Below, one piece after another: positions 1,219-36,447 of a DNA stretch of 64,000 bases. The notes beneath the pieces were generated by a model. The model saw only the letters and a list, made by a program, of their open reading frames with translations, had not been told where the DNA came from and ran no database searches. Each line of letters begins with the position of its first letter. The first letter of the stretch is position 1. The stretch comes from an uncultured Gammaproteobacteria bacterium (GTDB taxonomy: Bacteria; Patescibacteriota; Patescibacteriia; Magasanikbacterales; GWA2-37-8), in the NCBI GenBank assembly GCA_964510885.1, contig CAZEDL010000001.1, positions 64,684-128,683 of the forward strand, read 5' to 3'. Made by a program: the position numbers and the translations under genes.

Positions 1219-1263
1219 CCCCCTCGCTTGATATAAATAAAAATGCCTCTGATCAAGGCATTT

Positions 1264-2041: not shown

Positions 2042-2063
2042 AAGTTAAAAAATAAATAAAAAC

Positions 2064-2470: not shown

Positions 2471-2521
2471 TTTATATCTAAAAGCGTGTAAAAAGTTAGA
2501 CTCTAAAAGTCGAACCAATTT

Positions 2522-2603: not shown

Positions 2604-2635
2604 GTGTTTTTATCAAGAATAGTTAGTCCGGATTT

Positions 2636-2788: not shown

Positions 2789-2794
2789 ATATAT

Positions 2795-3016
2795 ATGCCA
2801 ATTTATTTAACTTGTCCTAAATGCAATTTGTTAATTGAACCAATAGTGATTATTCGTTTTATGAAAAATAAAAATTACACAGAAAAGCAAGATATAAAAT
2901 TTAAGTTTTGTTTGAAGGCTATTTGTTCCGAGTGTAGAGATTATATAAAATTTCTTCCTCATACAGATGAAAACATTAATTTATTTGATAATTCAGAACT
3001 CATATGGAAGAAATAA
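2795..3016 (+). CDS. small zinc-ribbon protein (CxxC...CxxC)
   Basis: 73 aa with CPKC and CSEC pairs. Overlaps the primase start by 13 nt, so translationally coupled. Confidence 0.45.
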   Translation: MPIYLTCPKCNLLIEPIVIIRFMKNKNYTEKQDIKFKFCLKAICSECRDYIKFLPHTDENINLFDNSELIWKK

Positions 3017-4767
3017 AAAAAGCCGCTTTACGATATTTGGAATTGGGTTTGTCTGTTATACCGCTTAAGCCAAAATCAAAAAATCCTTACATCTCTTCAT
3101 GGAAAGAATTTCAAAATAGACGTGCTAGTTTAGATGAAATTCAAAAATGGTGGGAGCAGCCAGATCTCAATATTGGTATAATTTGTGGACAGGTATCAAA
3201 TATAGTGGTGGTTGATATTGATAAAAATGATCCAGAAATTATTAAATCTTTGAAATTACCTCCTACTTTTATAGTAAAAACTGGTCGTGGTTTTCATTAT
3301 TATTATAGATATCCGACAGGTCTAAAAATTCCTGTAATTAAATGTTATTGGGGTGAGATTCGGGGCAATGGAGGTTATGTAGTCGGATCTCCTTCTATTC
3401 ATGTAAACGGTCAGATATACGAAGCTATATCAGATCTTTCAAGTATTGATGAGCTACCTGTGCTACCTGCTGAGTTACTTAAACGTTTTGGTGAAATGTC
3501 CAAAGGAAATAAATACGAACAGATCGTTCAAGGTGTTGCAGAAGGCGGAAGAAATAATGCTGCCGCTAGTTATATAGGTACAATTATAAATAAGATAGAT
3601 AAAGACAGGTGGGAAACAACAGCCTGGAATCTTGTGCTTTTTTGGAATTCTAAAAATATACCGCCTTTAGAAACGGCAGAACTAAGACGTACATTTGAAA
3701 GTATATGTTCGAGAGAAGTGGGTAAGCGAGAAAGCGTTCCTGGTTTTGCTGAAGATAAACCAATAAAACATTCAAACTTTACTATCACGAAATGTAGTGA
3801 AATGTTAACAAAAGAAGTCGAAAAATTTCCCTATATTATTGATCGGATCGTTCCCGAGCATGCAATTACTGCTATTACCGCTGATACCGGTAAGGGGAAG
3901 AGTTTGTTCGCGCTATTTTTGGCTAAAGCGGTCGCTGCGGGAGAAAAATTATTTGGTGAGTTTGAAGTTAAAAAAAATAAAGTCTTATTTATTGACCAGG
4001 AAATGGATGGGGATTTAATCATAGGACGTTTCAAATCAATAATCACCGAGAATATCGATATCGATTATATTTATGAACAATTTTGGACTATCAATAACGA
4101 AGAAGACTATGAATGGCTAAAGAATGAAATTATTTCTCAAAAGTACGGGTTAATTATTTTTGATACCCTAACGACCATACACACTCTCGAAGAGAACAGT
4201 GCTGATGATATGAAAAAACTTAATAAATTATTCCTACGTCTTATCAAAGAAACGGGCACTACTATAATTTATTTACATCATCATCGTAAACAGCAAAGTG
4301 GAGAAGCTCGAAATGGGTCATTATCCCGTGGATCAACTGAAATTACTGCTAAAGTGGCTAGTCATTTAAGATTGGAATCTAAAAGAGAGGGCGGGTTCTT
4401 AGAAGAAAAGATGATATTAAATATGACCTTAACACAGGAAAAAGCCAGAAGACCAGAAAGCATCTCGACGATTGGAATAAAGGTTACCCATGATAAAAAA
4501 AGTAAGATTACCACCTATGACTATCAGGGGATGGTTGAAGAGAATTTTGGACAAATAGAACAGGCCAAGAATTTAATTATCAAGGAACTTGAAGAAGATT
4601 ATCCTGAATTAACTGTTAGACAAGTTAAAGAGCACTCAGATATAGGATTAAACAGCATAAGAATAGCATTCAAGGAGCTTGTGAGGAAAGGTGTTTTAGA
4701 CTCTCGCAAGGCTGAGCATAATACATGCTATTATTTTTTGCGACCCCAACAGGTAACCACTCTTTAG
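3004..4767 (+). CDS. replication primase-helicase: bifunctional Prim-Pol domain + PriCT_1 + RecA/D5-like P-loop NTPase + C-terminal wHTH
   Basis: N-terminal LSVIPLKPKSKNPY...VVVDIDKND (Prim-Pol). PriCT-like segment NLVLFWNSKNIPPLETAELRRTFESI. Walker A ADTGKGKS. Confidence 0.8.
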   Translation: MEEIKKAALRYLELGLSVIPLKPKSKNPYISSWKEFQNRRASLDEIQKWWEQPDLNIGIICGQVSNIVVVDIDKNDPEIIKSLKLPPTFIVKTGRGFHYYYRYPTGLKIPVIKCYWGEIRGNGGYVVGSPSIHVNGQIYEAISDLSSIDELPVLPAELLKRFGEMSKGNKYEQIVQGVAEGGRNNAAASYIGTIINKIDKDRWETTAWNLVLFWNSKNIPPLETAELRRTFESICSREVGKRESVPGFAEDKPIKHSNFTITKCSEMLTKEVEKFPYIIDRIVPEHAITAITADTGKGKSLFALFLAKAVAAGEKLFGEFEVKKNKVLFIDQEMDGDLIIGRFKSIITENIDIDYIYEQFWTINNEEDYEWLKNEIISQKYGLIIFDTLTTIHTLEENSADDMKKLNKLFLRLIKETGTTIIYLHHHRKQQSGEARNGSLSRGSTEITAKVASHLRLESKREGGFLEEKMILNMTLTQEKARRPESISTIGIKVTHDKKSKITTYDYQGMVEENFGQIEQAKNLIIKELEEDYPELTVRQVKEHSDIGLNSIRIAFKELVRKGVLDSRKAEHNTCYYFLRPQQVTTL

Positions 4768-5016
4768 TTTAGTAGTTTGTTTGTTAGTATATAAACTATT
4801 AATAAACCAATAAGCACATTCTTTAGACTTGTAAGAAGAGTCTAAAGATGGTCTGCATTTTCCCCTTAATCAATAAACTACTAAACTGTAAAGATGTTTT
4901 TTATCTTAGATTAGCCAAGAATGTATTTATTAAAAAATCTTAATAACCTAAAAATAAACTAATACTCTTTTTACTTAAGAACTAAGCTAGACTATAATAG
5001 TTAAAAATAAATTCAT

Positions 5017-6606
5017 ATGGAAAATAAACCGCTACAGTGTATTATCTACGCTCGCGTATCCTCTAAAGAACAAGAGGAAACAGGGTACTCTCTGGATGCA
5101 CAGGAGAATTTATTAGCTACCTATGCTCAAAAGCAGGGATATAAGGTGGCAAAAACTTTCAAAATTACTGAATCGGCGAGTGGGAAACAGATCAGAAAAA
5201 TGTTTAACGACATGATGATTTATACGACAAAGCATTCAGTGCCCATCATCTTGTGTGAGAAAATCGATCGTCTTACCAGAAATCTAAAGGATGCAGCATT
5301 AATTAGTGATTGGCTAAACGAAGATGAGCGACGAGAAGTTCATTTTGTAAAAGAGTCGTTTGTAGTCAATAAAAACACCCGAGCCCATGAGAACCTGGTG
5401 TGGGATATGAAGGTAGCGATAGCTAGATTTTATACTAATAACCTTTCCGAAGAGGTTAAAAAGGGTCAAAAAGAGAAAATATCTCAAGGCGGCTATCCAT
5501 GTATGCCGCCCCTTGGTTACAAGACTATTGGAGAAAAAGGACATAAAATTTGCGTACCCGATGAAACAAAAGCTCCTCTTATTGCTAAAGCCTTTGAGCT
5601 ATATTCAGCCGGCCAATATTCAATTAATGCTTTGTGCAGGACAATGCACGAAGCTGGTCTTAGAAACCGTAACGGAGCAATGGTAAGCAAAACTCAGATG
5701 CATCGTTATCTAAGCGAGACGTTCTACTGTGGCCATTTCTATTGGAATGGAAAAATGTATAAAGGCACTCATACGCCCATAATCTCCCAAGAGCTCTATA
5801 ATTTAGTTCAACATAAACTAGTTCGCTCTTCTTCTAATCCTCAGTATAAGAAGCATTTAACAGTGTTTAAAGCGGCTATAAAGTGCGGTGAATGCGGGGG
5901 AGTTATAACTTGGGAACTTCAGAAGCAACATTGGTACGGCCATTGTAATCATTATAGGAAGTGCAGCCAAAAGAGTTACCTGCGTCAAGAAGAAGTAGAA
6001 AAACAGCTATTCCCTTATTTTGATAAAATTGCACCAAAAAATGACCGCATACTGCAATGGCTTGACGAAGCCTTAAAGGAGCATCATGGGGAAGAGATTA
6101 AACTTACTACCACAAAAAGAAGCCAATTAAATGCTCAATTTGAGCGTATTCAAAAAAGATTAGAAGCCATGTATCTTGATAAGCTCGACGGTCGGATCAC
6201 TATGGAATTTTATGACACTAAATTTAAAGAATTTACGGAAGAGAAAGAAGTCATACTTAGCGAACTCCAAAAATTAAATAACGATAACAATCTGTACTAC
6301 GAAGCTGGTTATGCCATCCATCTTTTAGCCAGTAAAGCGAAAGAAATTTATCAAAGTGAAAAGGCTACAGTTGAGGAGAAAAGATTATTACTGAGTTACG
6401 TATTTTCGAACCAAACACTAAAAGATCGAACCTTAGCCGTAAATTACACTCCAGCATTTGAATTTCTCGCAAAATGGGTACCACTCCTCAATCGTAGTTT
6501 CGAACCATCAAAAAAGAGCTTAGATAAAATGAAAACAGAGGCTTTTGCCTCTGCTCGTTCGGTTGTGCTCCGGGGGTGGGATTCGAACCCACGACCAATT
6601 GGTTAA
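5017..6606 (+). CDS. large serine recombinase (integrase)
   Basis: Catalytic N-terminus IYARVSSKEQEETGYSLDAQE with DRLTR motif, recombinase domain and Cys zinc ribbon (CGECGG...C..C). The last ~38 nt of the CDS overlap the 3' end of tRNA-Asn. Confidence 0.85.
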   Translation: MENKPLQCIIYARVSSKEQEETGYSLDAQENLLATYAQKQGYKVAKTFKITESASGKQIRKMFNDMMIYTTKHSVPIILCEKIDRLTRNLKDAALISDWLNEDERREVHFVKESFVVNKNTRAHENLVWDMKVAIARFYTNNLSEEVKKGQKEKISQGGYPCMPPLGYKTIGEKGHKICVPDETKAPLIAKAFELYSAGQYSINALCRTMHEAGLRNRNGAMVSKTQMHRYLSETFYCGHFYWNGKMYKGTHTPIISQELYNLVQHKLVRSSSNPQYKKHLTVFKAAIKCGECGGVITWELQKQHWYGHCNHYRKCSQKSYLRQEEVEKQLFPYFDKIAPKNDRILQWLDEALKEHHGEEIKLTTTKRSQLNAQFERIQKRLEAMYLDKLDGRITMEFYDTKFKEFTEEKEVILSELQKLNNDNNLYYEAGYAIHLLASKAKEIYQSEKATVEEKRLLLSYVFSNQTLKDRTLAVNYTPAFEFLAKWVPLLNRSFEPSKKSLDKMKTEAFASARSVVLRGWDSNPRPIG

Positions 6607-6639
6607 CAGCCAACTGCGCTACCGCTGCGCTACCCCGGA
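6568..6639 (-). tRNA. tRNA-Asn (anticodon GTT)
   Basis: Reverse complement folds as a cloverleaf: acceptor TCCGGGG/CCCCGGA, D-arm GCGC/GCGC, anticodon stem GTTGG/CCAAT with loop CTGTTAA, T-arm GTGGG-TTCGAAT-CCCAC. No CCA encoded. Confidence 0.85.
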
Positions 6640-6736
6640 ATATTTTTAAGTAAAAATAGTATAGCCGAAGCCCTAGAGCATGTCAATATTACTTTTATTA
6701 GAGTTTAGCGTAACTCCGTGATACAGTATCCTACAT

Positions 6737-8684: not shown

Positions 8685-9927
8685 GTTTTTCAGTCCGATG
8701 AAAATTATTTTATTCACGGTGTTCGTGGATGTGCTTGGGCTTGGTATTTTGATTCCAGTTATACCGATTCTCCTGGCTGACCCCGCGTCACCCCACTATC
8801 TACTGCCTGCTGGCTGGACGCTTGATCGGGGTTACATCACTCTTGGTTTCCTATTAGCGGTTTTTCCGTTCATGCAATTTTTATCCGCTCCAATCCTTGG
8901 GCAATTATCCGATAAATACGGCCGCAAGCGTTTGCTAGCACTCTGTCTTGCCGGTACCAGCGGGGGATATGCCTTATTTGCGCTTGCCATTATAATCAAA
9001 AGCATCCCATTATTATTTATAGCTAGAGCTATCGACGGTATCACCGGCGGTAATATAGCTATTGCTCAAGCAGCTATTGCCGACATCAGTAAGCCCTCCG
9101 ATCGCGTGAAAAATTTTGGCCTTATGGGCGCCACTTTTGGTGTCGGGTTTATTGTTGGGCCATTTCTTGGCGGGGTATTATCCGACAGCTCGATTATGCC
9201 GTGGTTTAGCGCTGCCACGCCTTTTTGGTTTGCGACCGCGCTGGCTTTTTTAAATACCGTATTCGTATCATATTTTTTCCCCGAAACAAATCGCGAAATC
9301 AAACGCCACCTCCAAATAAATTGGCGCCAGTCACTGCAACACATTGCTGCAGCAGCCACCCATGCCCGTTTGCGTGTTGTATTTTTGTCCAATTTTTTCT
9401 TTCAGGGAGGTTTCACTTTTTTTACTACTTTTTTCAGCGTATTTTTATTTAGCCGGTTTGGTGTAACGCAAAGTCAAATTGGCACCTATTTCGCCGTGAT
9501 TGGGGTGTGTATTGCTCTCGGGCAAGCGTTGGTAGTACGCCGTTTATCAGGAAAATTTCAGCCGGCGTCAATTTTGCGTGTCACACTAATCTTAGTTGGT
9601 TTATACTTGCCACTCCACTTTCTGCCAGCTGCGTGGTGGCAGATGTTTTTCCTCGCCCCTCTTTTTGCTGTTTTAGTCAGTTTGACCCAAAGTAACATGA
9701 CAGGCCAGGTGAGTCTCAGTGCGGCTGGTTCGGTCCAAGGGGAGGTGCTAGGGATTAATGCGAGTGTCCAAGCCCTAGCGCAATCAGTTCCACCCGTTCT
9801 AACTGGTTTTATCGCAGCTTCATTAAGCCCAAGCGCACCTATTGTGGTAGCTGCTATCACCATCTTACTCGCAGGGCTTATCTTTATTGTAGGATTTACT
9901 AAACCAAGGGAACCCGTCAAAACCTAA
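8674..9927 (+). CDS. MFS transporter
   Basis: MFS motif A GQLSDKYGRKRLL, ~12 predicted TM segments, 417 aa. Confidence 0.8.
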   Translation: MSNKFFSPMKIILFTVFVDVLGLGILIPVIPILLADPASPHYLLPAGWTLDRGYITLGFLLAVFPFMQFLSAPILGQLSDKYGRKRLLALCLAGTSGGYALFALAIIIKSIPLLFIARAIDGITGGNIAIAQAAIADISKPSDRVKNFGLMGATFGVGFIVGPFLGGVLSDSSIMPWFSAATPFWFATALAFLNTVFVSYFFPETNREIKRHLQINWRQSLQHIAAAATHARLRVVFLSNFFFQGGFTFFTTFFSVFLFSRFGVTQSQIGTYFAVIGVCIALGQALVVRRLSGKFQPASILRVTLILVGLYLPLHFLPAAWWQMFFLAPLFAVLVSLTQSNMTGQVSLSAAGSVQGEVLGINASVQALAQSVPPVLTGFIAASLSPSAPIVVAAITILLAGLIFIVGFTKPREPVKT

Positions 9928-10631: not shown

Positions 10632-11222
10632 ATGGTAATTCGTTCTGCTGAAGCCCAGCTTCCGACTGAATACGGCATGTTTAAGATTTTTATTTACACT
10701 TCAGATGCCGATAAGCGAGAGTATGTAGCCTTAACAATTGGCGATCTCACCAAGCAACCTATACTAGCGCGTATCCATTCACAGTGTCTCACCGGTGATG
10801 CTTTTGGCTCGCTTAAATGTGATTGCGGTCCGCAGCTGCATGCCAGCCTAAAAGTAATTGGCTCCTCCGAAGCCGGCATCTTGTTGTATTTAAATCAAGA
10901 AGGTCGGAGCATTGGCCTCAGTAACAAAATCAAAGCCTATGCCCTCCAGGATCAGGGTATGGATACGGTGGAAGCGAACGCAGCGCTCGGCTTTGCTCCC
11001 GATGCCCGCAATTACACTGTGGCTGCTGATATCCTAAAAGATCTTGGTGTTACGACCATTGCACTCCTCACCAATAATCCCGACAAAGTCACTCAAATTA
11101 AACAGTATGGAATCACCATATCGCATCGCTTGCCACTCGAGATCGCTGCGCAACCTAAGAATCGTGATTATTTGCTTGTCAAAAAAAATAAAATGGGCCA
11201 CCACCTCGATCAATTCGAATAA
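10632..11222 (+). CDS. ribA: GTP cyclohydrolase II
   Basis: HSQCLTGDAFGSLKCDCGPQL zinc-binding motif and a conserved C-terminal half. Confidence 0.85.
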   Translation: MVIRSAEAQLPTEYGMFKIFIYTSDADKREYVALTIGDLTKQPILARIHSQCLTGDAFGSLKCDCGPQLHASLKVIGSSEAGILLYLNQEGRSIGLSNKIKAYALQDQGMDTVEANAALGFAPDARNYTVAADILKDLGVTTIALLTNNPDKVTQIKQYGITISHRLPLEIAAQPKNRDYLLVKKNKMGHHLDQFE

Positions 11223-11224
11223 TT

Positions 11225-12334
11225 TTGTTCAGATCTATGGTAAAATCGGTATCAGATGATTTATTTTTAGCCCGCACGCTAGCGCTAGCTAAGAAAGGTC
11301 GTGGTCACACAAGTCCGAATCCGCTCGTTGGGTGTGTAATTGTAAAAAATAATCGGGTTCTGGCCGAAGGGTACCATCACCGCCTTGGCGGAGCTCATGC
11401 AGAAATCGAAGCTCTCGCCGCCGCCAAAAAACACGGAGTATCGGTGCGTGGTGCCACCCTGTATGTTAATTTAGAACCGTGCTCATACCAGGGGCGTCAG
11501 CCGCCCTGCGCTCCGGCTCTCGTGGCGGCCGGCATTACCCGAGTAGTTTTTTGTACGATCGATCCCAATCCTCGGGTAGCAGGAAAAGGCGCCGCGCTCT
11601 TACGCCAATCAAGTATCGAAGTAAGCTCCGGCCATCTCGAAGCCGAGGCACGCGCGTTGAATGAATCTTTTTTTACCTACCACGAAACTAAGCGCCCGTT
11701 CATCGCCCTTAAATATGCCGCCAGCCTCGACGGCAAAATTGCTACCTATACCGGCGATTCTAAATGGATAACTAATGAGGCTTCGCGCGCGTATGCACGG
11801 TCTCTACGTGGAATATACCAGGCTATCTTGGTTGGAATAGGCACAGTGCTCACTGACGATCCACATCTCGGCTCACGCCAAAAAAACACCACCGACCCGC
11901 TGCGGATTATTCTAGATAGTTCACTACGCATCCCTCTCTCAAGCCAAGTGCTGCGTGATAACAATGTCCTTATCGTCACAACCCACCTGGCTAGCAAAAC
12001 TAAACTGGCTGCACTCAAAAAACGCGGTTTCTCTGTGGTTTCGTTTAGAGGAAAAACTATTCCTATTCCCGCCCTCTTAAAAGTTTTAAAAGAGCGTGAA
12101 ATAATTAGCGTGTTAGTTGAAGGTGGTGGAACCGTACTCGGCAGTTTTATTGATCAGGGGTTGGTTGATAAGGTGTACATATTTCAAGCTCCACTTATCG
12201 TGGGTGGAGTCGGCGCGATTAGTGCGGTCGGCGGCCGAGGCGCCAAAACTATTAAATCTTCCCTGTACTTACAGCGGGTAGAGCGTCATGCTATTGGTTC
12301 TGATCTGTTGACGATTGGGTATCTGCGAGCTTAG
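11225..12334 (+). CDS. ribD: bifunctional riboflavin biosynthesis deaminase/reductase
   Basis: CMP/dCMP deaminase zinc motif HAEIEAL...LEPCSYQGRQPPC plus a C-terminal RibD reductase domain. Confidence 0.85.
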   Translation: MFRSMVKSVSDDLFLARTLALAKKGRGHTSPNPLVGCVIVKNNRVLAEGYHHRLGGAHAEIEALAAAKKHGVSVRGATLYVNLEPCSYQGRQPPCAPALVAAGITRVVFCTIDPNPRVAGKGAALLRQSSIEVSSGHLEAEARALNESFFTYHETKRPFIALKYAASLDGKIATYTGDSKWITNEASRAYARSLRGIYQAILVGIGTVLTDDPHLGSRQKNTTDPLRIILDSSLRIPLSSQVLRDNNVLIVTTHLASKTKLAALKKRGFSVVSFRGKTIPIPALLKVLKEREIISVLVEGGGTVLGSFIDQGLVDKVYIFQAPLIVGGVGAISAVGGRGAKTIKSSLYLQRVERHAIGSDLLTIGYLRA

Positions 12335-12368
12335 AATATCAAAAGATTTATTTTTAATAATTATTAGT

Positions 12369-12968
12369 ATGGTTATCGATGCCAAAACAGTTCGCACCAC
12401 TACAGCGCCAATTGGCGATATATTTCTCGAGCGTTGGTCGCCGCGTGCCTTATCTGGCGAGGCCTTGAGTGACGAAGAAGTAAAAGCGCTATTTGAAGCG
12501 GCGCGCTGGGCCCCGTCTTCCTACAATAATCAGCCCTGGCGCTTCGTGATCGCCACCAAAGATTCCCCCGAATGGGGTACTATTTTTGGCCTGCTTGGCG
12601 AGTTCAACCAGAGTTGGTGTAAGCAGGCGAGTCTCCTTGCAGTTGTTATCTCTAGTAATAAATTCGCCTACAATGGCGAGCCGTCGCCCACTCATTCCTA
12701 TGATACCGGCTCTGCTTGGATGAGTCTCGCCCTCGAAGCATCTCGCCGCGGCTTGGTAGCCCATGGGATGCAAGGGTTTGATTACGCCCGGGCTAAAACC
12801 GAACTAAAAATTCCCGACGATTACACTGTTGAGGCTATGTTTGCAGTTGGTAAACACGGTAAAAAAGAAGATCTGTCAGCAGAGTTACAGGCCAAAGAGC
12901 AGCCTTCTGATCGCAACCCTATTTCTGAGTTCGTCTTTAAAGGTGCTTTTGGTCAAAGAATTTTTTAA
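12369..12968 (+). CDS. nitroreductase-family flavoprotein
   Basis: SSYNNQPWRF hallmark. Start chosen at the internal Met after the ribD stop (the ORF track begins at 12315). Confidence 0.65.
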   Translation: MVIDAKTVRTTTAPIGDIFLERWSPRALSGEALSDEEVKALFEAARWAPSSYNNQPWRFVIATKDSPEWGTIFGLLGEFNQSWCKQASLLAVVISSNKFAYNGEPSPTHSYDTGSAWMSLALEASRRGLVAHGMQGFDYARAKTELKIPDDYTVEAMFAVGKHGKKEDLSAELQAKEQPSDRNPISEFVFKGAFGQRIF

Positions 12969-13214: not shown

Positions 13215-13290
13215 ACACATAGAACATCAAGCCGCTGCCGACATACCCGCGCATGGGCCAGCTCACGAGGGGGATCAACGGTTTATGGCT

Positions 13291-13327
13291 AAATAAAAAA
13301 TCCTTGTTTTAGCAAGGATTTTTTATT
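13291..13327. terminator. bidirectional intrinsic terminator
   Basis: aaaaaatccttg-tttta-gcaaggatttttt. Confidence 0.55.
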
Positions 13328-13329
13328 TA

Positions 13330-15833: not shown

Positions 15834-18206
15834 TTATTTTTTAACACTGTGGCCTCCAAACTGATTACGCATTGTAGACAGTAATTGCCCGGTATAGCTT
15901 GGCTTCTTTTTCGATTTCACGCGGAAATTAAACGAATCTTCAATCACAGGGGCAGGTACTTTTAATTTCTTGGCAGTTTTCACCGTCCACTCGCCTTCGC
16001 CCGTATAGTTTACCGCTCCCGAGACTGATTTCAAATTTTCACCATATGCTTCAAAGCCGCTTTTCAGCCAGCCGACCAGCCGTGATTCTATTACGCTGCC
16101 GCGGTTGTACAGCCGTGCCACCTCAGTGAGGTTTGGTTTGAAGTTAGATTTTTTCATCACGGCAAAACCTTCGGCAATTGCCTGCATCATACCATATTCA
16201 ATCCCATTATGTACCATTTTAATAAAATGCCCAGCACCAGCGCCATCAAACATGGCATAGCCTTCGGGCAGCGCGAGATCAACCCATAAGTGCTCAAGCC
16301 GCTTGGCTCGTTTTTGTCCGCCACCAATCATGAGGCAGGCACCATTCCTGGCTCCGGCCGGACCACCAGATACTCCCACATCCAAAAAGTGAATGCCTCG
16401 TTTTTCAAGCAATTTACCACGTCGTTCGGAATCAAGGTAAAACGAATTACCTCCATCTATAATCGTGTCACCCCGCTCAACATAGTTAATAAGCCCGTCT
16501 TGCGTGCCAAATAGTACCTCATCAACGGGCGCTCCTGCAGGCACCATCATCCAAATCAATCGCGGAGCGGGCAGGCTGTCGACTAATTCTTTAAGTGTAG
16601 TTGCGGTCCGTGCGCGAATTTCTTGTCCAAGCGTCATGGCGACTTCATGGGTACGATTAAATAGAGTGGTGCTCCAGCCTTTTTCTGCCAACCGTCGAGC
16701 CACATTTGCCCCCATTTTTCCGAGACCAATAATACCAATTGATTTTGAAAGCACAATCGGCATAGAGGCAGCCGGCTTGGTTTCAGTAATGACTGCTACA
16801 TCCGGTTCGTATTGCTCGAGTATCACTCCGTTATTTTTCCATACGTGAATAATTGGGTCGATAAATTTCCACATTGCTTTAATCTCTCGAGTCTCATTAA
16901 ACAGTGTTTGGTCGCCCATAATACAGTCGAGAAGAATTTTTTTGTATTCTTCGACATAAAGCATGTCGCTCTTCTGCCCCCGCAGTAAAAAATCGATCGT
17001 TCGCTCATCGAGCTTATATTCTATACCCGGCAATTTAGACCAAAATTTAATACTAATGCCTTCGGTAGGCTCGACCGAAAAAATAATTTGATTCTGATGA
17101 TGTGGCTCCCCAGGGGGACACCAGCAAGGAGATGTATGTTTAAAGGTTACAATAATTTCTTTTTTGCGTACTCCGAGCCGTTTTCCACTCTCGAGCATGA
17201 TAGGCACCCCACTCCACCGCGGAGAGTCAAGCTCAAAGGTGAGCTTAAAGTACGTTTCGTTATTAGAATTTTTGGCCACGCCAACAATGTCTTGGTATCC
17301 GGCATATTGTGCCCGGCGGGTAGATTTTTTAATATCTTTAGCAGATAACTTGGGAAGTTTTTCAAGCAGTTTCATGCGTTCATCACGGATTGCCTCAGGC
17401 GAAAACTCAGCCGGCTGATTCATAGTTACAAGTCCCAGCATTTGCAAGAGATGGTTCTGCCCCATATCACGCAGCGCCCCCACGGAGTCATAATACCGAC
17501 CTCGCTCTTCCACTCCGAGCGTTTCCCAAAGACGCAAATCAATTCGCTCAATAAATTGATTATTCCATATGGGCTCGAATAAATTATTGGCAAATCTAAA
17601 GCTCAAAATATTCTGCAACATCGTTTTGGCCAAGTAGTGATCGATGCGATAAATTTGTTCTTCCTTAAATAGCTTGCCTAATCGTTCATCTAGTCGTTCG
17701 GCCGTTTTTAAATCGTTGCCAAACGGTTTTTCTACCAGCACACGACTCCAGCCTTCCGCTGCGGAACAAGGCTTGGTTAAATTAGACTGCGCTAAATTTT
17801 CTACAATCGGTTCGATAAATGTTGGCGGCACGGCCAAATAAAAGAGTTTATTCGAGCAAGCCTTCCATTCGCCATCGATATACCCTAGGCGTTCAGCCAG
17901 CGAACGATACGCCTGAAGCGCATCAAAATCACCCTGTTGCCACTCAATCCGTTTCAAAAATCCAGCCACCTGATCGGCTGGTGTAGTTTTGAATTCAGCT
18001 CGCTCCAAAATAATCTGCCGCACCTGGTCACGGAATGCCTCTGCCGTTAAATTTCGATGTGAAAATCCAATAATATGAAATAAGCGGGGTAATTTTTTTT
18101 CTAAATAGAGATGAAATAATGCGGGCACGATTTTGCGCCCCATCAAATCGCCAGTAGCCCCAAAAATAATAAGGATCGTAGGTAATGTAAGAGAGGTAAA
18201 ATCCAT
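15834..18206 (-). CDS. fusion protein: glucose-6-phosphate dehydrogenase (N-terminal ~480 aa) + short-form 6-phosphogluconate dehydrogenase, decarboxylating (C-terminal ~300 aa)
   Basis: G6PD motifs IIFGATGDLMGRKIVPAL and RIDHYLAKTMLQNI. 6PGDH motifs IGIIGLGKMGANVARRL, GAGHFIKMVHNGIEYGMMQAIAEG and RNQFGGHSV. Single uninterrupted 790-aa frame. Confidence 0.85.
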   Translation of the reverse strand: MDFTSLTLPTILIIFGATGDLMGRKIVPALFHLYLEKKLPRLFHIIGFSHRNLTAEAFRDQVRQIILERAEFKTTPADQVAGFLKRIEWQQGDFDALQAYRSLAERLGYIDGEWKACSNKLFYLAVPPTFIEPIVENLAQSNLTKPCSAAEGWSRVLVEKPFGNDLKTAERLDERLGKLFKEEQIYRIDHYLAKTMLQNILSFRFANNLFEPIWNNQFIERIDLRLWETLGVEERGRYYDSVGALRDMGQNHLLQMLGLVTMNQPAEFSPEAIRDERMKLLEKLPKLSAKDIKKSTRRAQYAGYQDIVGVAKNSNNETYFKLTFELDSPRWSGVPIMLESGKRLGVRKKEIIVTFKHTSPCWCPPGEPHHQNQIIFSVEPTEGISIKFWSKLPGIEYKLDERTIDFLLRGQKSDMLYVEEYKKILLDCIMGDQTLFNETREIKAMWKFIDPIIHVWKNNGVILEQYEPDVAVITETKPAASMPIVLSKSIGIIGLGKMGANVARRLAEKGWSTTLFNRTHEVAMTLGQEIRARTATTLKELVDSLPAPRLIWMMVPAGAPVDEVLFGTQDGLINYVERGDTIIDGGNSFYLDSERRGKLLEKRGIHFLDVGVSGGPAGARNGACLMIGGGQKRAKRLEHLWVDLALPEGYAMFDGAGAGHFIKMVHNGIEYGMMQAIAEGFAVMKKSNFKPNLTEVARLYNRGSVIESRLVGWLKSGFEAYGENLKSVSGAVNYTGEGEWTVKTAKKLKVPAPVIEDSFNFRVKSKKKPSYTGQLLSTMRNQFGGHSVKK

Positions 18207-18250
18207 AAAAAATTCAAAAATGATACCAAAATCGTAACATGTGAGAATTA

Positions 18251-18282
18251 AAAAAGCAATCCATAAACGGATTGCTTTTTTG
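18251..18282. terminator. bidirectional intrinsic terminator
   Basis: aaaaagcaatcc-ataaac-ggattgctttttt. Confidence 0.5.
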
Positions 18283-18400
18283 TCATTTTTTTCAGATCTT
18301 TCCTGTGAAACAAACTAGTTAGTATCACAGGAAACCGGATCTGAAAAAAATGTGTTTGCCCTAGCCACCTACACGGATGGCACTTGGGCTCTGATCGCCA

Positions 18401-18883
18401 CTACTCAGGCCGGTCAGACCAGCACATCACCGACCACGTCGGCTGGATCGGATTCATGTAGCAGTACAGCTGCAGCCGAATTGTGTTGCCGCTCTCGCTA
18501 ATGGGCATGGCCCGGAGAGCACTGCGCTCGTCACAGGTATAGACGGTATTATCCCCAGTCACGACCTCAGCGTACTGCAACGAGCAGGCCAGCTCGTCCC
18601 TTCTGAAGTCGAATTTCGCGCCATAACCGTTGAATCTTCCACCCTCTCGCCTGCACTTTTCAGGAGTAATCTCCTCACAGTCTATGGTGTCGTAACAGAG
18701 CCAGATCCTTTGCTGATTTGCCGCGCCCTCCAAATGGCTCCAGAGCATGTTATCGCAGTCGACGCTGCGCGGCTTAGCCATATCGGCAACCGAATCCGCC
18801 ATGTCAACCCCCTCCTCTTGCGATGGTCGCAGGCTAGGGGCGCAACCCAGAAGAAAGATCATCGTGATAGAGCATGTTTTCAT
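18401..18883 (-). CDS. Cys-rich lipoprotein, high-GC islet 1
   Basis: Lipobox signal MKTCSITMIFLLGCAPS. Perfect SD aaggag 7 nt upstream. Local GC ~58-60% versus ~47% in neighbours. Confidence 0.5.
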   Translation of the reverse strand: MKTCSITMIFLLGCAPSLRPSQEEGVDMADSVADMAKPRSVDCDNMLWSHLEGAANQQRIWLCYDTIDCEEITPEKCRREGGRFNGYGAKFDFRRDELACSLQYAEVVTGDNTVYTCDERSALRAMPISESGNTIRLQLYCYMNPIQPTWSVMCWSDRPE

Positions 18884-19240
18884 CAGAGTCTCCTTGGTTT
18901 TTGCGAGTCAGACTGCTTTTACCATCAAGCACAGATTTATGCCGAAGGCAATAGCGGCCTTTCGCAGAAAAAATTTATATCACAAATTTAGTATTACGTA
19001 AATACATTTTTACAAAATACACATATTGATGTGGATAAACTTCTTGTCGCACCTTTTTCAATCGGTTATTATCAGATAAAATATAAAAATTCCAATGCTG
19101 ACAATTTTTGAAAAAAGTAAAAAATATTTTTTATTTATTACAACCATCTAATCCCGGACTTATCGGGATTTTTTTGACACCATATCTAATTAGTCTGTGT
19201 AAATAATCCATACATGTTTATTTTTAATATAGAGTGTCAT

Positions 19241-20254
19241 ATGTCCAAAATAATAGCCGAATATATCTGGCTTGATGGTGCCAAACCCACCGCTCAGCTA
19301 CGTTCTAAAACAAAAATCATCGAAGGTCATGTATCTTCACTTCTCGATATCCCCGAATGGGGATTTGACGGATCGAGCACTCAGCAAGCCGCTGGGCATT
19401 CGAGTGACTGCCTCCTGCGCCCGGTTCACTTTGTGAAAGATCCAATCCGGGGCGAACCTCACATTTTAGTGATGTGCGAAGTCTTCACCGCCGATGGCAG
19501 CGTCCACCCCACTAACACCCGGGCTCGTCTACGCGAAGTTAACGAACGCTTTGCCCACGAAGAATCATGGTTCGGCATTGAACAAGAATATGTCCTGATG
19601 CAGGCCGGTAAACCAGCAGGCTGGCCAAGCAATGGCTTCCCCAAGCCACAGGGTGATTTTTATTGTGGAGTGGGGGAGGGTGCAGTCTCTGGGCGAGATC
19701 TGGTAGAAGCCCATATGCAGGCCTGCCTTGATGCTGGCCTCCGCTTCTGCGGTATTAATGCCGAAGTAATGCTCGGCCAATGGGAATTTCAGATTGGCCC
19801 CCTGCCACCACTGCAACTTAGTGATGAAATGTGGATTGCGCGCTGGCTTCTGCTCCGGCTCGGTGAAGATTACGGATATAGTGTATCGCTAGATCCCAAA
19901 CCGATAAAAGGCGACTGGAATGGCTCCGGTGGTCATACTAACTTTAGCACCAAAGCTATGCGCTCTCCTGGCGGTATGCAGGCCATTGAAGCCGCCTGCA
20001 AGAAATTTGGCGAGCGCCACCAGGCGCATATCGAAGTATACGGTGCCAATAACCACGAACGCCTCACCGGCAAACATGAAACTTGTGGTATTAATGAATT
20101 TAAGTATGGCGTGAGTCACCGCGGCGCCTCAATCCGGATCCCCATGGCGAGCGCCAACAATGGGTATGGGTATCTAGAGGATCGCCGCCCGGCGGCCAAT
20201 GCTGATCCGTATCAGGTGTGTGCCATTATAGTCGAGACAGCGTGCCGAAATTAG
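19241..20254 (+). CDS. glnII: glutamine synthetase type II
   Basis: N-terminal EYIWLDG signature of GSII, ~340 aa, conserved catalytic C-terminal half. Confidence 0.8.
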   Translation: MSKIIAEYIWLDGAKPTAQLRSKTKIIEGHVSSLLDIPEWGFDGSSTQQAAGHSSDCLLRPVHFVKDPIRGEPHILVMCEVFTADGSVHPTNTRARLREVNERFAHEESWFGIEQEYVLMQAGKPAGWPSNGFPKPQGDFYCGVGEGAVSGRDLVEAHMQACLDAGLRFCGINAEVMLGQWEFQIGPLPPLQLSDEMWIARWLLLRLGEDYGYSVSLDPKPIKGDWNGSGGHTNFSTKAMRSPGGMQAIEAACKKFGERHQAHIEVYGANNHERLTGKHETCGINEFKYGVSHRGASIRIPMASANNGYGYLEDRRPAANADPYQVCAIIVETACRN

Positions 20255-20265
20255 ATAGTAAAAAA

Positions 20266-20300
20266 TAAAAAACAGCACCTAAAATAAAGTGCTGTTTTTT
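20266..20300. terminator. bidirectional intrinsic terminator
   Basis: aaaaaacagcac-ctaaaataaa-gtgctgtttttt. Confidence 0.55.
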
Positions 20301-20436
20301 AATATTTCTTCGAGAAGCATCTTATCATTCCAATATGTATTTTGGAACGATAAGATGGACAGCTTCTCGAGAAAGAGGCGGCCCACCGTGTGGTGGCCGC
20401 GGCCGGTGTGGCAATGGTGGTTGATGGCAGAGAGGG

Positions 20437-21153
20437 CTAGGTCGCCGCGGATGCTGGGTAGATCACATCAATCAGCATCAGGAACACCGCTGCCTGCACG
20501 TCGCTTAAGCGGTTTTGTAGGCAAGCATTGCCCACCGCTGCGTAGCCGCTCGCGCGGCTGTCAATAGGGGCGGACTTGCTTTCGTCCTTGAACACTACGT
20601 GGTAGTGTCCTAGGCATGCCTGCAAGTAGGGCTGTCCAGGGACAAATACCACAAACAGACTCATCCTTGCCTCTGCAGAGGGCGCTGGGAAGGCCTCGCC
20701 CTCCGGGAGGCGCCTCGACGCCGCCACAGCGGCCATGTGAACTGCCTGCTCTTCAATGTCGATCAACCAGTGGTTAAAAAGCATCTCAAGGGTGGCCCTG
20801 ACTTCACTCTTGCGGAGCATCCGCGGCCCCTCCTCCTCCCCGAGCTGGAAATTGGCGAATGGCCCCTTGTCATCCTCGCCGATGAAGAGCTGGAAGACCG
20901 GCGGTGTTGTCATCGGCAGGTGGGTCGCCTGCTCGACAGCCGCACGCAGTTCACCCGCGTTGGCCTCATCGATAACCCTGTGCTGCAGCAAGAAATCCAC
21001 CCAAAGCGTGCCGGCCCGGCGCGACTTCACGGGGACCCCGTTCTCGGGATCACCGTCCGGCACCAGAAAGGCTGTGTGCCGGCCTCCTTCGCTGCTTTTC
21101 ACCAACGAGAAGCGGGTCTGAGCGCTACTATCACCTTTCGTTTTAGCGAACAT
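20437..21153 (-). CDS. hypothetical cytoplasmic protein, high-GC islet 2
   Basis: ATG at 21151-21153 (reverse strand) with SD aaggag 6 nt upstream. ~60% GC. Shadow ORFs on the plus strand were rejected. Confidence 0.5.
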   Translation of the reverse strand: MFAKTKGDSSAQTRFSLVKSSEGGRHTAFLVPDGDPENGVPVKSRRAGTLWVDFLLQHRVIDEANAGELRAAVEQATHLPMTTPPVFQLFIGEDDKGPFANFQLGEEEGPRMLRKSEVRATLEMLFNHWLIDIEEQAVHMAAVAASRRLPEGEAFPAPSAEARMSLFVVFVPGQPYLQACLGHYHVVFKDESKSAPIDSRASGYAAVGNACLQNRLSDVQAAVFLMLIDVIYPASAAT

Positions 21154-21450
21154 CGGCACTCCTTCTTTATGAGGCGCTATACCACCTGTCTTATTCGTTT
21201 GTACCTACAAACGGGCTAGGTGGGTGCACGCTTTATTCGTCTAAATACAAACAAAATGCGCTCCAACCTAGTCTTTTATTTAAAAGTGAATTCGAACCTA
21301 TTCAAAACAAGAGATCTTATTATAAAAAATTAAGCCTGTCAAGGTATGCTAGATGAGCATTCTTTTAAAAAACCCCCTGACGATTCTTCATAAAACTTTT
21401 AACAGACTGCGGTTGTTATAATTTCCATCTCCTGTTACTATGATGTCGCT

Positions 21451-22113
21451 ATGCACCAACAAACATTCACCAGCCAAACTGATTTTATCACCGCCGCTCT
21501 GTCGGAAGTAAAAAAATCTATTTCGGCAGCGGAAGAAACCTGCTTTATTGCTCTATCCGGCGGCCAAACACCTTTGCCTGTCTACGCTGCCCTCAATCCC
21601 GAAGATGTCACTCGGGCTGAATTTTTTCTCGCCGACGAACGCTGTATGCCACTCGATGATAAAGATTCAAATTACCGCGCGATTCGTGAAGTGTTGCCCG
21701 AAGAAGCAATCCTCCAACCAATCGATACCGCACTCCCTCCAGCCGAAGCAGCGCTAGCGTATTCGCAGGAAATAGATGTTGTACCAAATAGCCGGTTTGA
21801 TTTAATTATTCTCGGCCTCGGCCAAGATGGCCACACCGCATCGCTATTTCCAAATGATGTTACCGCTCACGAATCTCTGGGCACCGTGATCCCGACTCTC
21901 AACCCTTCCGCTCCACATCCGCCTGTGCGAGAGCGGGTCACCCTTACCTTCAACACCATCCTAAAAGCTAAAAAATTATTACTTCTCATAAGCGGCGCTG
22001 AAAAAGCCGCTGCTGTAGAAGAATTAGTGCACGGATCAAAAACACCTCTCGAATTTCCCGCTAAGCGGTTATTGGGACATCCGCAATTAAAGATTCATTT
22101 TTTAAAAAAGTAA
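21451..22113 (+). CDS. pgl: 6-phosphogluconolactonase
   Basis: IALSGGQTP and LGLGQDGHTASLFPN signatures. Confidence 0.8.
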   Translation: MHQQTFTSQTDFITAALSEVKKSISAAEETCFIALSGGQTPLPVYAALNPEDVTRAEFFLADERCMPLDDKDSNYRAIREVLPEEAILQPIDTALPPAEAALAYSQEIDVVPNSRFDLIILGLGQDGHTASLFPNDVTAHESLGTVIPTLNPSAPHPPVRERVTLTFNTILKAKKLLLLISGAEKAAAVEELVHGSKTPLEFPAKRLLGHPQLKIHFLKK

Positions 22114-22183
22114 ATAGTAAACAGATAACAGTAAATAGAAAAATGTTGACTCTATTGTCTGTTGTCTATTTACTGTTGTCTAT

Positions 22184-23164
22184 ATGCAGACCAATTTCTG
22201 GAAAACCCTCCCCAAACCCTTCTTCTGCCTCGCCCCCATGGCCAATGTTACCGATGCTGCCTTTCGCCGGATCATTGCCAAATATGGGAAGCCTGACGTC
22301 ACCTGGACAGAATTTGTCTCTGCCACCGGCCTCTGTTCTCCAGGCAAAGACGTACTTCTGACCGATTTTTGGTATACTGAATCAGAACGCCCGATTGTAG
22401 CCCAAATTTTTGGTTCCACTCCCGAACATTATTATCAGGCCGCTCTATTGATTCAAGAGCTTGGGTTTGATGGTATCGATATCAACATGGGCTGCCCCGA
22501 TAAGAGTGTCAGTTGCAAGCAAGGCTCGGGTGCTGGCCTCATCCTCGAACCCAAACTCGCCCAAGAAATTATTAAGGAAACCAAACGCGGGGCAGGCCCG
22601 CTGCCCGTTTCCGTAAAGACACGATTGGGGTATAATGTGAACGTCCTTGATACTTGGCTGCCGAATTTACTCGAAACTGAGCCAGCTGCCATTACCCTGC
22701 ATTGCCGAACTAAAAAAGAATTATCGCTCGTGCCAGCTCATTGGGAAGAAGTTGGTAAAGCCGCAGCCATTCGCGATAAGTACGATAGCTCAGAAAATAA
22801 AACCCTCATCATTGGCAACGGTGATGTCAAAGACAGAGCCGAAGGTGAAGCTAGAGTTCGTGAAACTGGGTGCGACGGCATTATGATCGGACGGGGAATT
22901 TTTGGTACCCCCTGGCTTTTCAACAAAGACCGCGACTACAAAACCATCAACCGAGACGAAAAGTTAAGAGTCCTAGCTGAGCATACTAAATTATTTGAAG
23001 AGCTCTTCCACGATAAAAAAGGCTTTGACGTGATGAAAAAACATTTTAAAGCGTACGTAAACGGGTTTGACGGCGCCAAAGAATTACGAATCAAACTCAT
23101 GGAGTGCCACACTGCTGCCGAGGTCGAAGCAATTATTGCTGAACATAATTTTGATAATTTTTAA
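22184..23164 (+). CDS. dus: tRNA-dihydrouridine synthase
   Basis: FCLAPMANVTDAAFRRI, IAQIFGS and DGIDINMGCP motifs. Confidence 0.85.
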   Translation: MQTNFWKTLPKPFFCLAPMANVTDAAFRRIIAKYGKPDVTWTEFVSATGLCSPGKDVLLTDFWYTESERPIVAQIFGSTPEHYYQAALLIQELGFDGIDINMGCPDKSVSCKQGSGAGLILEPKLAQEIIKETKRGAGPLPVSVKTRLGYNVNVLDTWLPNLLETEPAAITLHCRTKKELSLVPAHWEEVGKAAAIRDKYDSSENKTLIIGNGDVKDRAEGEARVRETGCDGIMIGRGIFGTPWLFNKDRDYKTINRDEKLRVLAEHTKLFEELFHDKKGFDVMKKHFKAYVNGFDGAKELRIKLMECHTAAEVEAIIAEHNFDNF

Positions 23165-29777: not shown

Positions 29778-29860
29778 TTGTCATTCCCGCGCAGGCGGGA
29801 ATCCAGTGGTCGCTCGCCAAATTAGTAATTGCTAGATTCCCGCCTGCACGGGAATGACAA
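29778..29860. repeat. MITE-like nested palindromic repeat element, copy 2
   Basis: GTCATTCCCGCGCAGGCGGGAATCC ... GATTCCCGCCTGCACGGGAATGACAA. Each arm is itself a hairpin. Confidence 0.6.
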
Positions 29861-30943: not shown

Positions 30944-31330
30944 ATGCGTATCTCCGGTATCACTCTTCCTAAGGAAAAACGGATTGTAGTAGCTCTTAAC
31001 TACCTCTACGGCATTGGCCCAAGCCTATCGAAGAAAATCTTGGCTATGGCCAAAATCGACGAAAGCATTCGCACCAAAAATCTGACCAACGAACAGGAAG
31101 ATTTGCTGCGCTCGATTATTGAAAAAACCTACAAAACCGAAGGCGACCTGCGCCGCGAAGTTCAGGCCAACATCAAGCGCCTCAAAGATATTAAAGCTTT
31201 CCGTGGTATTCGCCATATGAAACACTTGCCTGTTCGCGGTCAGCGCACCAAAACCAATTCCCGCACCGTCCGCGGCAATGTCCGCAAGACCATGGGCAGC
31301 GGCCGCAAAGAAACCGGCCAGAAGACATAA
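30944..31330 (+). CDS. rpsM: 30S ribosomal protein S13
   Basis: Conserved N-terminus ...GITLPKEKRIVVALNYLYGIGPSLSKKIL. Confidence 0.9.
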   Translation: MRISGITLPKEKRIVVALNYLYGIGPSLSKKILAMAKIDESIRTKNLTNEQEDLLRSIIEKTYKTEGDLRREVQANIKRLKDIKAFRGIRHMKHLPVRGQRTKTNSRTVRGNVRKTMGSGRKETGQKT

Positions 31331-34173: not shown

Positions 34174-34581
34174 ATGACCAAAATCAACGCCAAAGATACC
34201 AAAATCCGCAGCGTCGGCCGCCGCAAATCAGCCGCAGCCCGCGTCCGCATCGACCAGGGGACTGGTGTAATCACCGTCAACGGCATGCCGCTTGAAAAGT
34301 ATTTTCCATACAAAGAATGGCAGGAAATCGTAATGGCCCCGCTCAAAGCTGTGTCCAAAGAAAAGAACACCGACGTATCGGTTAAAACCGACGGCGGCGG
34401 CAAAAAAGGCCAGGCTACAGCCATCCAACTCGGCATCGCCCGCGCCCTCGTGCAATTCAACGAAGACTTCAAAAAAACCCTCAAATCCCTCGGCGTACTC
34501 ACCCGCGACGCACGCGTCAAAGAACGCAAGAAACCGGGTCTTAAGAAAGCTCGTCGTGCACCGCAGTGGAGCAAACGTTAA
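34174..34581 (+). CDS. rpsI: 30S ribosomal protein S9
   Basis: C-terminal ...GGGKKGQATAIQLGIARAL...ARRAPQWSKR. Confidence 0.9.
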   Translation: MTKINAKDTKIRSVGRRKSAAARVRIDQGTGVITVNGMPLEKYFPYKEWQEIVMAPLKAVSKEKNTDVSVKTDGGGKKGQATAIQLGIARALVQFNEDFKKTLKSLGVLTRDARVKERKKPGLKKARRAPQWSKR

Positions 34582-36356: not shown

Positions 36357-36447
36357 TCGTCATCTTGAGCGCAGCAAAGAATCCCACAACGCCAAATACA
36401 AGCCGCCGTAAACCACAAGGGATTCTTCGTTTCACTCAGAATGACAG
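36357..36447. repeat. MITE-like nested palindromic repeat element, copy 3
   Basis: GTCATCTTGAGCGCAGCAAAGAATCCC ... GGGATTCTTCGTTTCACTCAGAATGACAG. The ~27-bp arms are inverted around a ~37-bp loop. Confidence 0.6.

Follow-up and report, generated by a model that had tools for sequence, protein, structure and literature searches.

Three short blocks of DNA in a genome of the Candidate Phyla Radiation (CPR) are considerably richer in GC than the genes around them, which raises the question of whether this DNA is foreign and, if so, from what kind of organism and by what route it arrived. The blocks are found in a window of 64,000 nucleotides (the whole stretch of DNA analyzed here, from contig CAZEDL010000001.1 of assembly GCA_964510885.1) at about 18353-18960, 20376-21235 and 60379-60770, and each of these islets contains one minus-strand gene, denoted p1 (18401-18883), p2 (20437-21153) and p3 (60417-60725), respectively. 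An earlier note on this DNA described the three islets as recent acquisitions from a high-GC donor, for which the actinobacterial host of an episymbiotic CPR cell was proposed. The islets are indeed anomalous, with 55.7, 60.4 and 61.5% GC in the three genes compared to 46.0 ± 3.9% in the core genes of the window, islet 1 being the weakest case. On balance, we consider it probable that moderately GC-rich foreign DNA was inserted here in three independent small pieces, each with one orphan gene. Acquisition is favored by the synonymous GC excess, the GC-rich untranslated tails and the absence of the islets from relatives, but no donor homologue was detected, and the proposed actinobacterial source is not supported.

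The compositional anomaly was assessed against 56 core genes of the window; neither the three candidate ORFs nor the genes of the low-GC element that opens the window were included. This reference set has a gene GC of 0.460 (standard deviation (sd) 0.039, maximum 0.542) and a GC content at third codon positions (GC3) of 0.462 (sd 0.064, maximum 0.625), within a window of 44.8% GC as a whole. The respective values of gene GC and GC3 are 0.557 (z 2.5) and 0.696 (z 3.7) for p1, 0.604 (z 3.7) and 0.728 (z 4.2) for p2, and 0.615 (z 4.0) and 0.631 (z 2.7) for p3. A 200-nt GC profile peaks at 0.59, 0.65 and 0.68 in islets 1, 2 and 3, respectively, and a scan of the window at 300 nt has its two highest peaks in islets 2 and 3. 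When the GC content expected from the amino acid sequence of each protein and the synonymous codon frequencies of the host was compared with that observed, a synonymous excess was found for p1 (expected 0.501, observed 0.560; +0.058, z 2.3), p2 (0.525 and 0.606; +0.082, z 3.2) and p3 (0.576 and 0.620; +0.045, z 1.8). Thus, both amino acid content and codon choice contribute to the GC excess of the three genes, that of p3 being mostly driven by its Gly, Pro, Ala and Asp residues. The analysis of GC and codon usage that the earlier note proposed as a check came out in favor of its description (z 2.5-4.0 for GC, 2.7-4.2 for GC3 and 1.8-3.2 for the synonymous excess).

The anomaly is not confined to coding sequence. 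The untranslated 3' tails, defined as the stretches from the stop codon to the adjacent palindrome, have GC contents of 58% in islet 1 (18353-18400, minus strand), 70.5% in islet 2 (20376-20436, minus strand) and 79% in islet 3 (60379-60416, minus strand), and the 5' leaders of the three genes reach 48-62%, whereas native intergenic DNA of the window is mostly 25-45% GC. Neither amino acid content nor translational selection accounts for the composition of these tails, so that amino acid content is not sufficient to explain the excess as a whole. The GC content of p2 at codon positions 1, 2 and 3 is 0.64, 0.44 and 0.73 (GC3 > GC1 > GC2), as is typical of genuine genes in moderately GC-rich DNA.

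The second line of evidence comes from the comparison of the loci with those of relatives. Islets 1 and 2 were compared with GCA_964585245.1 (L002, identical to L004) and L005, and islet 3 with the metagenome contigs L067 and L068. Both L002/L004 and L005 retain the gene order transketolase (tkt), G6PD/6PGDH fusion, type II glutamine synthetase (GSII), pgl and dus, with 58-88% amino acid identity to the window, and lack islets 1 and 2 at the syntenic loci: the G6PD-GSII spacer comprises 198 bp in L002/L004 and 398 bp in L005, compared to about 1007-1034 bp in the window, and the GSII-pgl spacer 81 and 110 bp, compared to 1196 bp. Spacer alignments show that the extra DNA has native sequence on either side, namely, a conserved TGTGGATAA motif with a terminator-like hairpin upstream of GSII, and a -10 region with the apparent right arm of an ancestral GSII terminator upstream of pgl. 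At the third locus, L067 and L068 encode a UvrD that is 75-82% identical to that of the window, with RlmN directly upstream as in the window, and different genes in between: an unrelated 229-aa minus-strand orphan in L067 (969-1658; GC 0.546, compared to 0.513 for the locus) and a 93-aa plus-strand ORF in L068. Neither contig contains the methyltransferase or p3 between RlmN and UvrD, a spacer that, judged from these gene contents, appears to be a turnover hotspot. The earlier note had named conservation of the islets at the same loci as the finding that would speak against acquisition; p1-p3 are missing from the nearest syntenic relatives, which favors acquisition. The pairwise distances among the window, L004 and L005 are roughly equal; gain would take a single event per islet and loss two, so that gain is the somewhat more parsimonious option, and we infer gain.

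Several features of these loci deserve separate mention. The gene at 15834-18206 (minus strand) encodes a 790-aa fusion of G6PD (N- and C-terminal domains) with 6PGDH in a single polypeptide; L004 and L005 encode it as a protein of 811 aa, with pgl and transketolase as neighbors. GSII (19241-20254, plus strand) is a type II, eukaryote-like glutamine synthetase that shares 85-88% identity with its counterparts in the two closest relatives and 62-73% with those of CPR, Marinimicrobia, Thermoanaerobaculia, Saprospiraceae, Dehalococcoidia and Verrucomicrobia (loci L004-L066); it is mildly GC-elevated in each host examined, and its patchy distribution suggests repeated transfer of GSII itself. Upstream of it, the TGTGGATAA motif at 19031-19039, which is identical to a DnaA-box consensus, and a hairpin with a T-run at 19150-19175 are kept in the window, L002 and L005, within a spacer that is not conserved around them, and could represent a GSII regulatory leader or attenuator.

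The proteins encoded in the islets are complete orphans. A word-indexed phmmer search for p1, p2 and p3 among 5.8 billion proteins returned self-matches only, and exhaustive phmmer with p2 yielded no credible homologue among 1.84 billion representatives. Three p2 matches (E 7e-7 to 2e-4) were rejected as spurious because they involve highly repetitive proteins with scores summed over 5-13 weak stretches. All three proteins form singleton clusters (a 121-aa form of p3 was looked up), the GSII cluster being tiny as well. p1-p3 match no family of Pfam, NCBIfam, PHROGs or PADLOC, save a sub-threshold C-terminal tag in p3, and searches of IMG/VR with p1-p3, of JGI metagenome contigs with p2 and, by blastn, of plasmids and phages with islet 2 were likewise empty. 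A search against the sequences of the PDB gave no meaningful match for p1 and p2. The three proteins show no similarity to one another, to the GC-rich neighbors of GSII in L040 or to the L067 orphan. Single-sequence AlphaFold models are unusable (pLDDT 37.6 for p2 and 36.5 for p1).

A number of observations weigh against foreign origin. With no donor homologue for any of p1-p3, it has to be argued from composition and phyletic pattern alone. By raw GC, islet 1 merely equals the peaks within ribD and atpA (0.58), and ribosomal-protein genes are likewise enriched in synonymous GC (34174-34581, z 2.6; 30944-31330, z 2.0), so that expression-linked codon bias could be part of the GC3 signal. Each inserted stretch also includes AT-rich DNA unlike that of the presumed donor, that is, the palindrome and the promoter region. 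The phyletic pattern is based on two relatives per locus at about 25% protein divergence (a genus-to-family distance), and loss in these relatives could have produced it as well. Finally, there is no integrase, transposase, insertion sequence (IS) element or tRNA at any block border; the nearest recombinase, a large serine recombinase (5017-6606), is 12 kb away and, together with tRNA-Asn, belongs to a separate low-GC element; and the GGGCTAGGT repeat around p2 is within chance expectation for GC-rich DNA.

Under the main rival explanation, p1-p3 are native, fast-evolving, lineage-specific genes (for example, those for surface proteins under diversifying selection) that were ancestral and have disappeared from the sampled relatives by loss or replacement, and their GC content results from amino acid composition together with the GC-ending codons preferred in highly expressed genes. 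The occurrence of a different gene in the RlmN-UvrD spacer of each of three relatives, suggestive of a turnover hotspot, is in line with this explanation, as are the synonymous GC excess of the ribosomal-protein genes and the GC predicted from amino acids for p3, which covers most of its anomaly; orphan status fits rapid divergence and transfer equally well. We nevertheless regard native origin as unlikely, given the composition of the non-coding tails, GC3 values of 0.70-0.73 that exceed the maximum among the 56 core genes, and the two independent losses per islet that three equidistant genomes would require.

Also improbable, in our assessment, is that the blocks are non-genic, i.e., remnants of GC-rich non-coding elements, structured RNAs or young de novo ORFs, with the ORFs being by-products of stop-poor DNA. 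Several long ORFs do overlap on both strands, and the long shadow ORFs that the earlier note reported opposite the islet genes are present at all three islets (18710-18991, 20737-21219, 20756-21121, 60366-60707 and 60439-60786); none of these opposite-strand ORFs has a Pfam match. An ORF of 102 codons such as p3 is expected with a calculated chance of about 5% per frame at 63% GC, and the lack of homologues and of a confident fold is compatible with non-genic DNA, as is a GC-rich patch without codon-position structure that follows GSII in L007. Other evidence points to genes. An ORF of 238 codons like p2 has a calculated chance of about 4e-4 per start in random sequence of 60% GC. The codon-position pattern of GC, the ribosome-binding sites, the lipoboxes and the C-terminal helix with RRR are confined to the assigned frames. 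The Shine-Dalgarno sites that had been noted are of the AGGAG type and precede the ATG by 5-7 nt: AAGGAGA at 5 nt in the p1 leader (18884-18960, minus strand; 48% GC), GAAGGAG at 5 nt in the p2 leader (21154-21342, minus strand; 50% GC in the part 21154-21235, with AT-rich DNA farther upstream) and GAGGAGG at about 6 nt in p3, where the 3' arm of a GC-rich hairpin (60726-60766, minus strand; -22.2 kcal/mol, z -3.8) overlaps the site. Promoter-like sequences are found upstream of the p1 leader (TTGGAA-16-GATAAT at 19095-19068) and of p2 (TTGACA-17-TAAGAT at 21342-21314, the best such site in the region). At the Rfam gathering score, tRNA-Asn is the only match in the window and no family is matched by the islets, a permissive search adding sub-threshold hairpin-type matches on the palindromes; with these results and the modest folding z of islet 2 (-2.1 and -3.2, 20 shuffles), a structured-RNA interpretation was rejected.

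Acquisition from an actinobacterial host, with a role of the genes in host interaction, is very improbable. Uptake of foreign DNA is generally attributed to CPR bacteria, the islets are GC-rich, and two of the three products resemble surface lipoproteins, all of which would fit. Assignment of the source bacterium to the CPR, a possibility raised in the earlier note, is reasonable, and judging from its genes this bacterium groups with the Magasanikbacteria/Uhrbacteria type and not with the Saccharibacteria. Among the gene products of the window are an AlaRS that is short (618 aa) and a 272-aa RpoA that matches only the N-terminal part of the model; also present are a ribosomal-protein/rpoA cluster and further core genes, including those for ATP synthase and MetRS; several of its genes are 68-73% identical at the amino acid level to syntenic genes of L007, a Candidatus Magasanikiibacteriota metagenome-assembled genome (MAG); the next-best relatives of its GSII are from Uhrbacteria and Magasanikbacteria; and the two closest genomes, although recorded as 'uncultured Gammaproteobacteria', have the same CPR-like gene order. 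To our knowledge, Saccharibacteria are the sole CPR lineage with established actinobacterial hosts. The homologues in high-GC Actinobacteria that were expected under this proposal did not appear, self-matches being the only result for p1-p3 despite dense actinobacterial sampling, and no second copy of p1 was detected in the assembly of the same sample beyond that on the CPR contig. With 0.63-0.73, the GC3 of p1-p3 falls short of the values in typical actinomycetes of 65-72% GC, and the donor GC of roughly 58-62% that it suggests is lower than in typical Actinomyces-like hosts. The sole hint of a family, in p3, leads to Cys-containing tags of Myxococcota or Pseudomonadota (10.1101/2023.06.07.544157).

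An equally poor prospect is offered by integron-like or hairpin-targeted cassettes, in which an ORF and a 3' palindrome would have been inserted site-specifically at folded single-stranded DNA. The palindromes concerned are an AT-rich, near-perfect one of 69 nt at the 3' side of p1 (18284-18352; -32.1 kcal/mol, z -9.0), an AT-rich, imperfect, bulged one of 70 nt at the 3' side of p2 (20306-20375; -34.9 kcal/mol, z -9.2 for 20304-20377) and an imperfect hairpin of 66 nt on the minus strand 3' of p3 (60313-60378; -30.7 kcal/mol, z -6.2 for 60310-60380), which is followed by a T-rich run and is a plausible intrinsic terminator of p3. Of the three, the p3 hairpin alone has a T-run after it on the coding strand. 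Next to the p1 and p2 palindromes there are bidirectional terminators, i.e., an A-run, a 13-bp perfect stem and a T-run between G6PD/6PGDH and islet 1 (18250-18282; -16.2 kcal/mol, z -6.3), which looks native because L005 has a similar hairpin, and an A-run/stem/T-run directly after GSII (20260-20307; -18.4 kcal/mol, z -6.5). Since 18284-18352 has no trailing T-run on either strand, it is no canonical terminator. Like integron gene cassettes (ORF plus attC), the islets combine a single, promoter-distal ORF with a bulged imperfect palindrome of about 70 nt (66-70 nt), attC-like in size and position, and, in spacer alignments, neither the 18284-18352 nor the 20306-20375 palindrome is present in the empty sites of L002 and L005. 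Unlike such cassettes, they lack the conserved R''/R' core sites (RYYYAAC ... GTTRRRY) at the ends of the three palindromes, share no sequence among these palindromes, and form no array, with one unit per site; neither IntI nor another tyrosine recombinase was detected among the larger window ORFs scanned. The palindromes are moreover AT-rich like the host and unlike a cassette, and similar ones occur at sites without GC islets, so that the cassette interpretation was rejected.

The hairpins placed by the earlier note at the flanks of the islets are thus real and very stable (z -6.2 to -9.2) but carry no islet- or mobility-specific mark: similar long inverted repeats are present in islet-free spacers (13290-13329, 22106-22181, 29778-29860 and 36359-36445), which makes the hairpins a property of the spacers of this genome. 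Among these, 22106-22181 is an AT-rich double inverted repeat of 76 nt that occupies the pgl-dus spacer (70 bp here, 44 bp in L002) and is another instance of hairpin-forming insertions in spacers of the source genome. The repeats at 29778-29860, 36359-36445 and L007 11033-11070 have arms running from GTCAT... to ...GAATCC (e.g., TTGTCATTCCCGCGCAGGCGGGAATCCAG) and resemble a dispersed palindromic repeat family of these genomes; one GTCATTCTGAGC...GCGAAGAATC copy is located directly 3' of GSII in L007. Upstream of the G6PD/6PGDH start, the palindrome and terminator at 18247-18363 (minus strand) are attenuator-like and give a sub-threshold Rfam match to Phe_leader (41.4 bits, gathering score 55, E 9e-5), which probably reflects two adjacent hairpins.

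Linkage of the islets to core genes is documented by Logan contigs of SRR16481186 and SRR16481187, which show 100% identity to the window in the intervals 18331-20273 (islet 1 and GSII), 20469-22394 (most of p2, its upstream region, pgl and the start of dus), and 58975-60532 and 59168-60571 (the end of RlmN, the methyltransferase, the palindrome and the 3' half of p3). These contigs end at hairpins, where short-read graphs tend to break, and independent coverage excludes the hairpin-proximal junctions. The weakest of all explanations, an assembly or binning artefact in which fragments of a GC-rich organism were spliced into the CPR contig, can draw on the source being a MAG and on the breaks of Logan contigs inside or beside hairpins, and is unlikely to the point of being barely credible because contigs from two runs continue from islet to core genes for all three islets, collinear native sequence flanks each block on both sides, and three clean intergenic placements do not resemble chimeric joins.

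Returning to the insertion of foreign DNA as the preferred explanation, each islet would be a piece of about 0.4-0.9 kb from a moderately GC-rich source, which became fixed in an intergenic spacer of a Magasanikbacteria-related CPR genome of ~45% GC. By rule of thumb, GC3 values of 0.63-0.73 correspond to a donor of roughly 58-62% GC, and the source would have had about 58-62% GC if the sequence is unameliorated. Each block would have brought one orphan gene, which is oriented against most of its neighbors and is now equipped with a Shine-Dalgarno site, with promoter-like AT-rich DNA upstream and with a hairpin or terminator downstream. The AT-rich regulatory DNA may indicate that the genes were domesticated after arrival, or that an intermediate source already carried it. 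The simplest route would be illegitimate recombination of environmental DNA with no dedicated recombinase. A 9-nt direct repeat, GGGCTAGGT, brackets p2 (20434 and 21213), with its 8-nt core recurring at the p3 stop codon, and a GGGCTAGG motif has three copies in the window, all within islets and two of them bracketing p2. A target duplication was rejected for these repeats, as about two 9-mer pairs and about six 8-mer triples are expected by chance (estimated for 2 kb at 60% GC). Separate from the islets, a low-GC block at 1-6640 (29-39%, compared to 45%) ends at the serine recombinase mentioned above, a 529-aa CcrB/XisF-like protein whose gene overlaps or abuts tRNA-Asn (6567-6639, minus strand), and is probably an integrated mobile element of a compositional sign opposite to that of the islets.

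GC-rich genes without recognizable domains are also found in other CPR genomes. In L040, a 278-aa ORF (4907-5743; GC 0.627, GC3 0.74, in a locus of 43% GC) is located directly 3' of GSII; in L008, a 471-aa ORF with a lipobox-like start (SIFAC) and a GC3 of 0.72 (11134-12549) begins 130 nt after GSII; and in L007, the GC-rich patch after GSII (11120-11390) contains a small minus-strand ORF preceded by a Shine-Dalgarno site. The genes in the spacers of L040, L008, L007 and L067 are unrelated, have no Pfam family above threshold and are mostly GC-rich. In L015, a Paceibacterota MAG, two GC-elevated patches (2726-3075 and 9076-9775) lack codon-position structure, and both contain an ORF with the same peptide-like string AKQNQKFPF; these patches may be a repeated non-coding element. 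A bolder, quite doubtful extension of the insertion model would be that this CPR lineage repeatedly captures short GC-rich fragments from an unsampled partner organism, at a few intergenic hotspots beside GSII and between RlmN and UvrD, and turns them into surface lipoproteins by the addition of AT-rich promoters and hairpins. The genes beside GSII in L040, L008 and L007 are compatible with recurring capture. Their adjacency to GSII is possibly a matter of sampling, because every examined locus was chosen for containing GSII. If true, repeated capture would bring into view a route by which new surface proteins arise, whether host-derived or de novo.

The descriptions of the three proteins given in the earlier note hold, with p1 being Cys-rich, p2 (238 aa) unclassified and p3 combining a lipobox with a hydrophobic C-terminus and RRR. 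Inspection with the consensus [LVI][ASTVI][GAS]C (the lipoprotein signature in PROSITE is PS51257) identified lipoboxes in p3 (LLTAC) and p1 (FLLGC, short). The 160-aa p1 starts with MKTCSITMIFLLG-C, contains 10 Cys in total (8 of them beyond the lipobox at residues 10-14) and has its lipobox Cys at position 14, which implies a rather short signal peptide; it is a probable lipoprotein, and its cysteines fit an extracytoplasmic, disulfide-bonded protein. The 102-aa p3 starts with MMRQKSLNFPVLALLLTAC and has the lipoprotein signal MMRQKSLNFPVLALLLTA-C, with LLTAC at residues 15-19; its middle part is rich in Gly, Pro, Asp and Ala, and its C-terminus ...SGGGCQVTRPATSGEHGLFFFVLGVAGGVIIFRRRLS consists of a GGGC motif, the hydrophobic helix GLFFFVLGVAGGVIIF and RRRLS, which may form a second membrane anchor or a sorting tag. 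By these signals, p1 and p3 are predicted to reach the cell surface as exported, lipid-anchored proteins; Lgt, LspA and Lnt were not seen within the window. p2 has no signal peptide and is predicted to be cytoplasmic. Its three segments of about 80 aa may be internal repeats, with A versus B scores reached in 19 of 500 shuffles, A versus C in 3 of 500 and no significance for B versus C, so that a three-fold repeat is weakly supported.

Should the islets be recent acquisitions, they would show at which sites foreign DNA can still enter, and be expressed from, a genome that is very small and streamlined. The cell surface, where two of the products would then be located, is where the CPR cell contacts its partner, and these two would be reasonable candidates for factors of strain-specific interaction. 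At present, the islets are a routine case of orphan-gene islets.

The features of the islets and their products can be compared with several known systems. As in bacterial lipoproteins processed by Lgt and LspA, the presumptive signals FLLG-C of p1 and LLTA-C of p3 consist of an n-region with basic residues, a hydrophobic core and a lipobox Cys; in contrast to them, the Cys of p1 at residue 14 is slightly under the usual lower limit, and neither protein matches a lipoprotein family. The C-terminus of p3 aligns over nearly the full length of the MYXO-CTERM (TIGR03901; 15.7 bits, cut-off 20, E 0.014) and JDVT-CTERM (NF033191; 13.4 bits, cut-off 27, E 0.053) models, below threshold in both cases. 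These are Cys-containing tripartite sorting tags cut by CPBP-type 'myxosortases', systems known from Myxococcota and some Pseudomonadota (10.1101/2023.06.07.544157; PMC11980579). The GGGC motif, the hydrophobic helix and the RRR at the extreme C-terminus of p3 are similar to such tags; the differences are the 11 residues, including charged ones and Pro, between the Cys and the helix, the lack of the DP motif of JDVT-CTERM (10.1101/2023.06.07.544157), and the description of these systems outside CPR. No CPBP-family (PF02517) protease was detected among the window proteins scanned, and at its sub-threshold score the tag-like C-terminus is a lead and not an assignment. Islets 1-3 are closest to acquired ORFan islets. 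They differ from these in the absence of a tRNA, an integrase, an IS element or convincing direct repeats, in their single-gene size of 0.4-0.9 kb, and in being GC-richer than the host, most foreign or ORFan DNA in bacteria being AT-richer. They share with acquired ORFan islets the atypical GC and GC3, the sharp boundaries, the intergenic location between syntenic genes, the absence from relatives and the lack of homologues, and they are thus a new instance of a familiar phenomenon and not a new kind of system.

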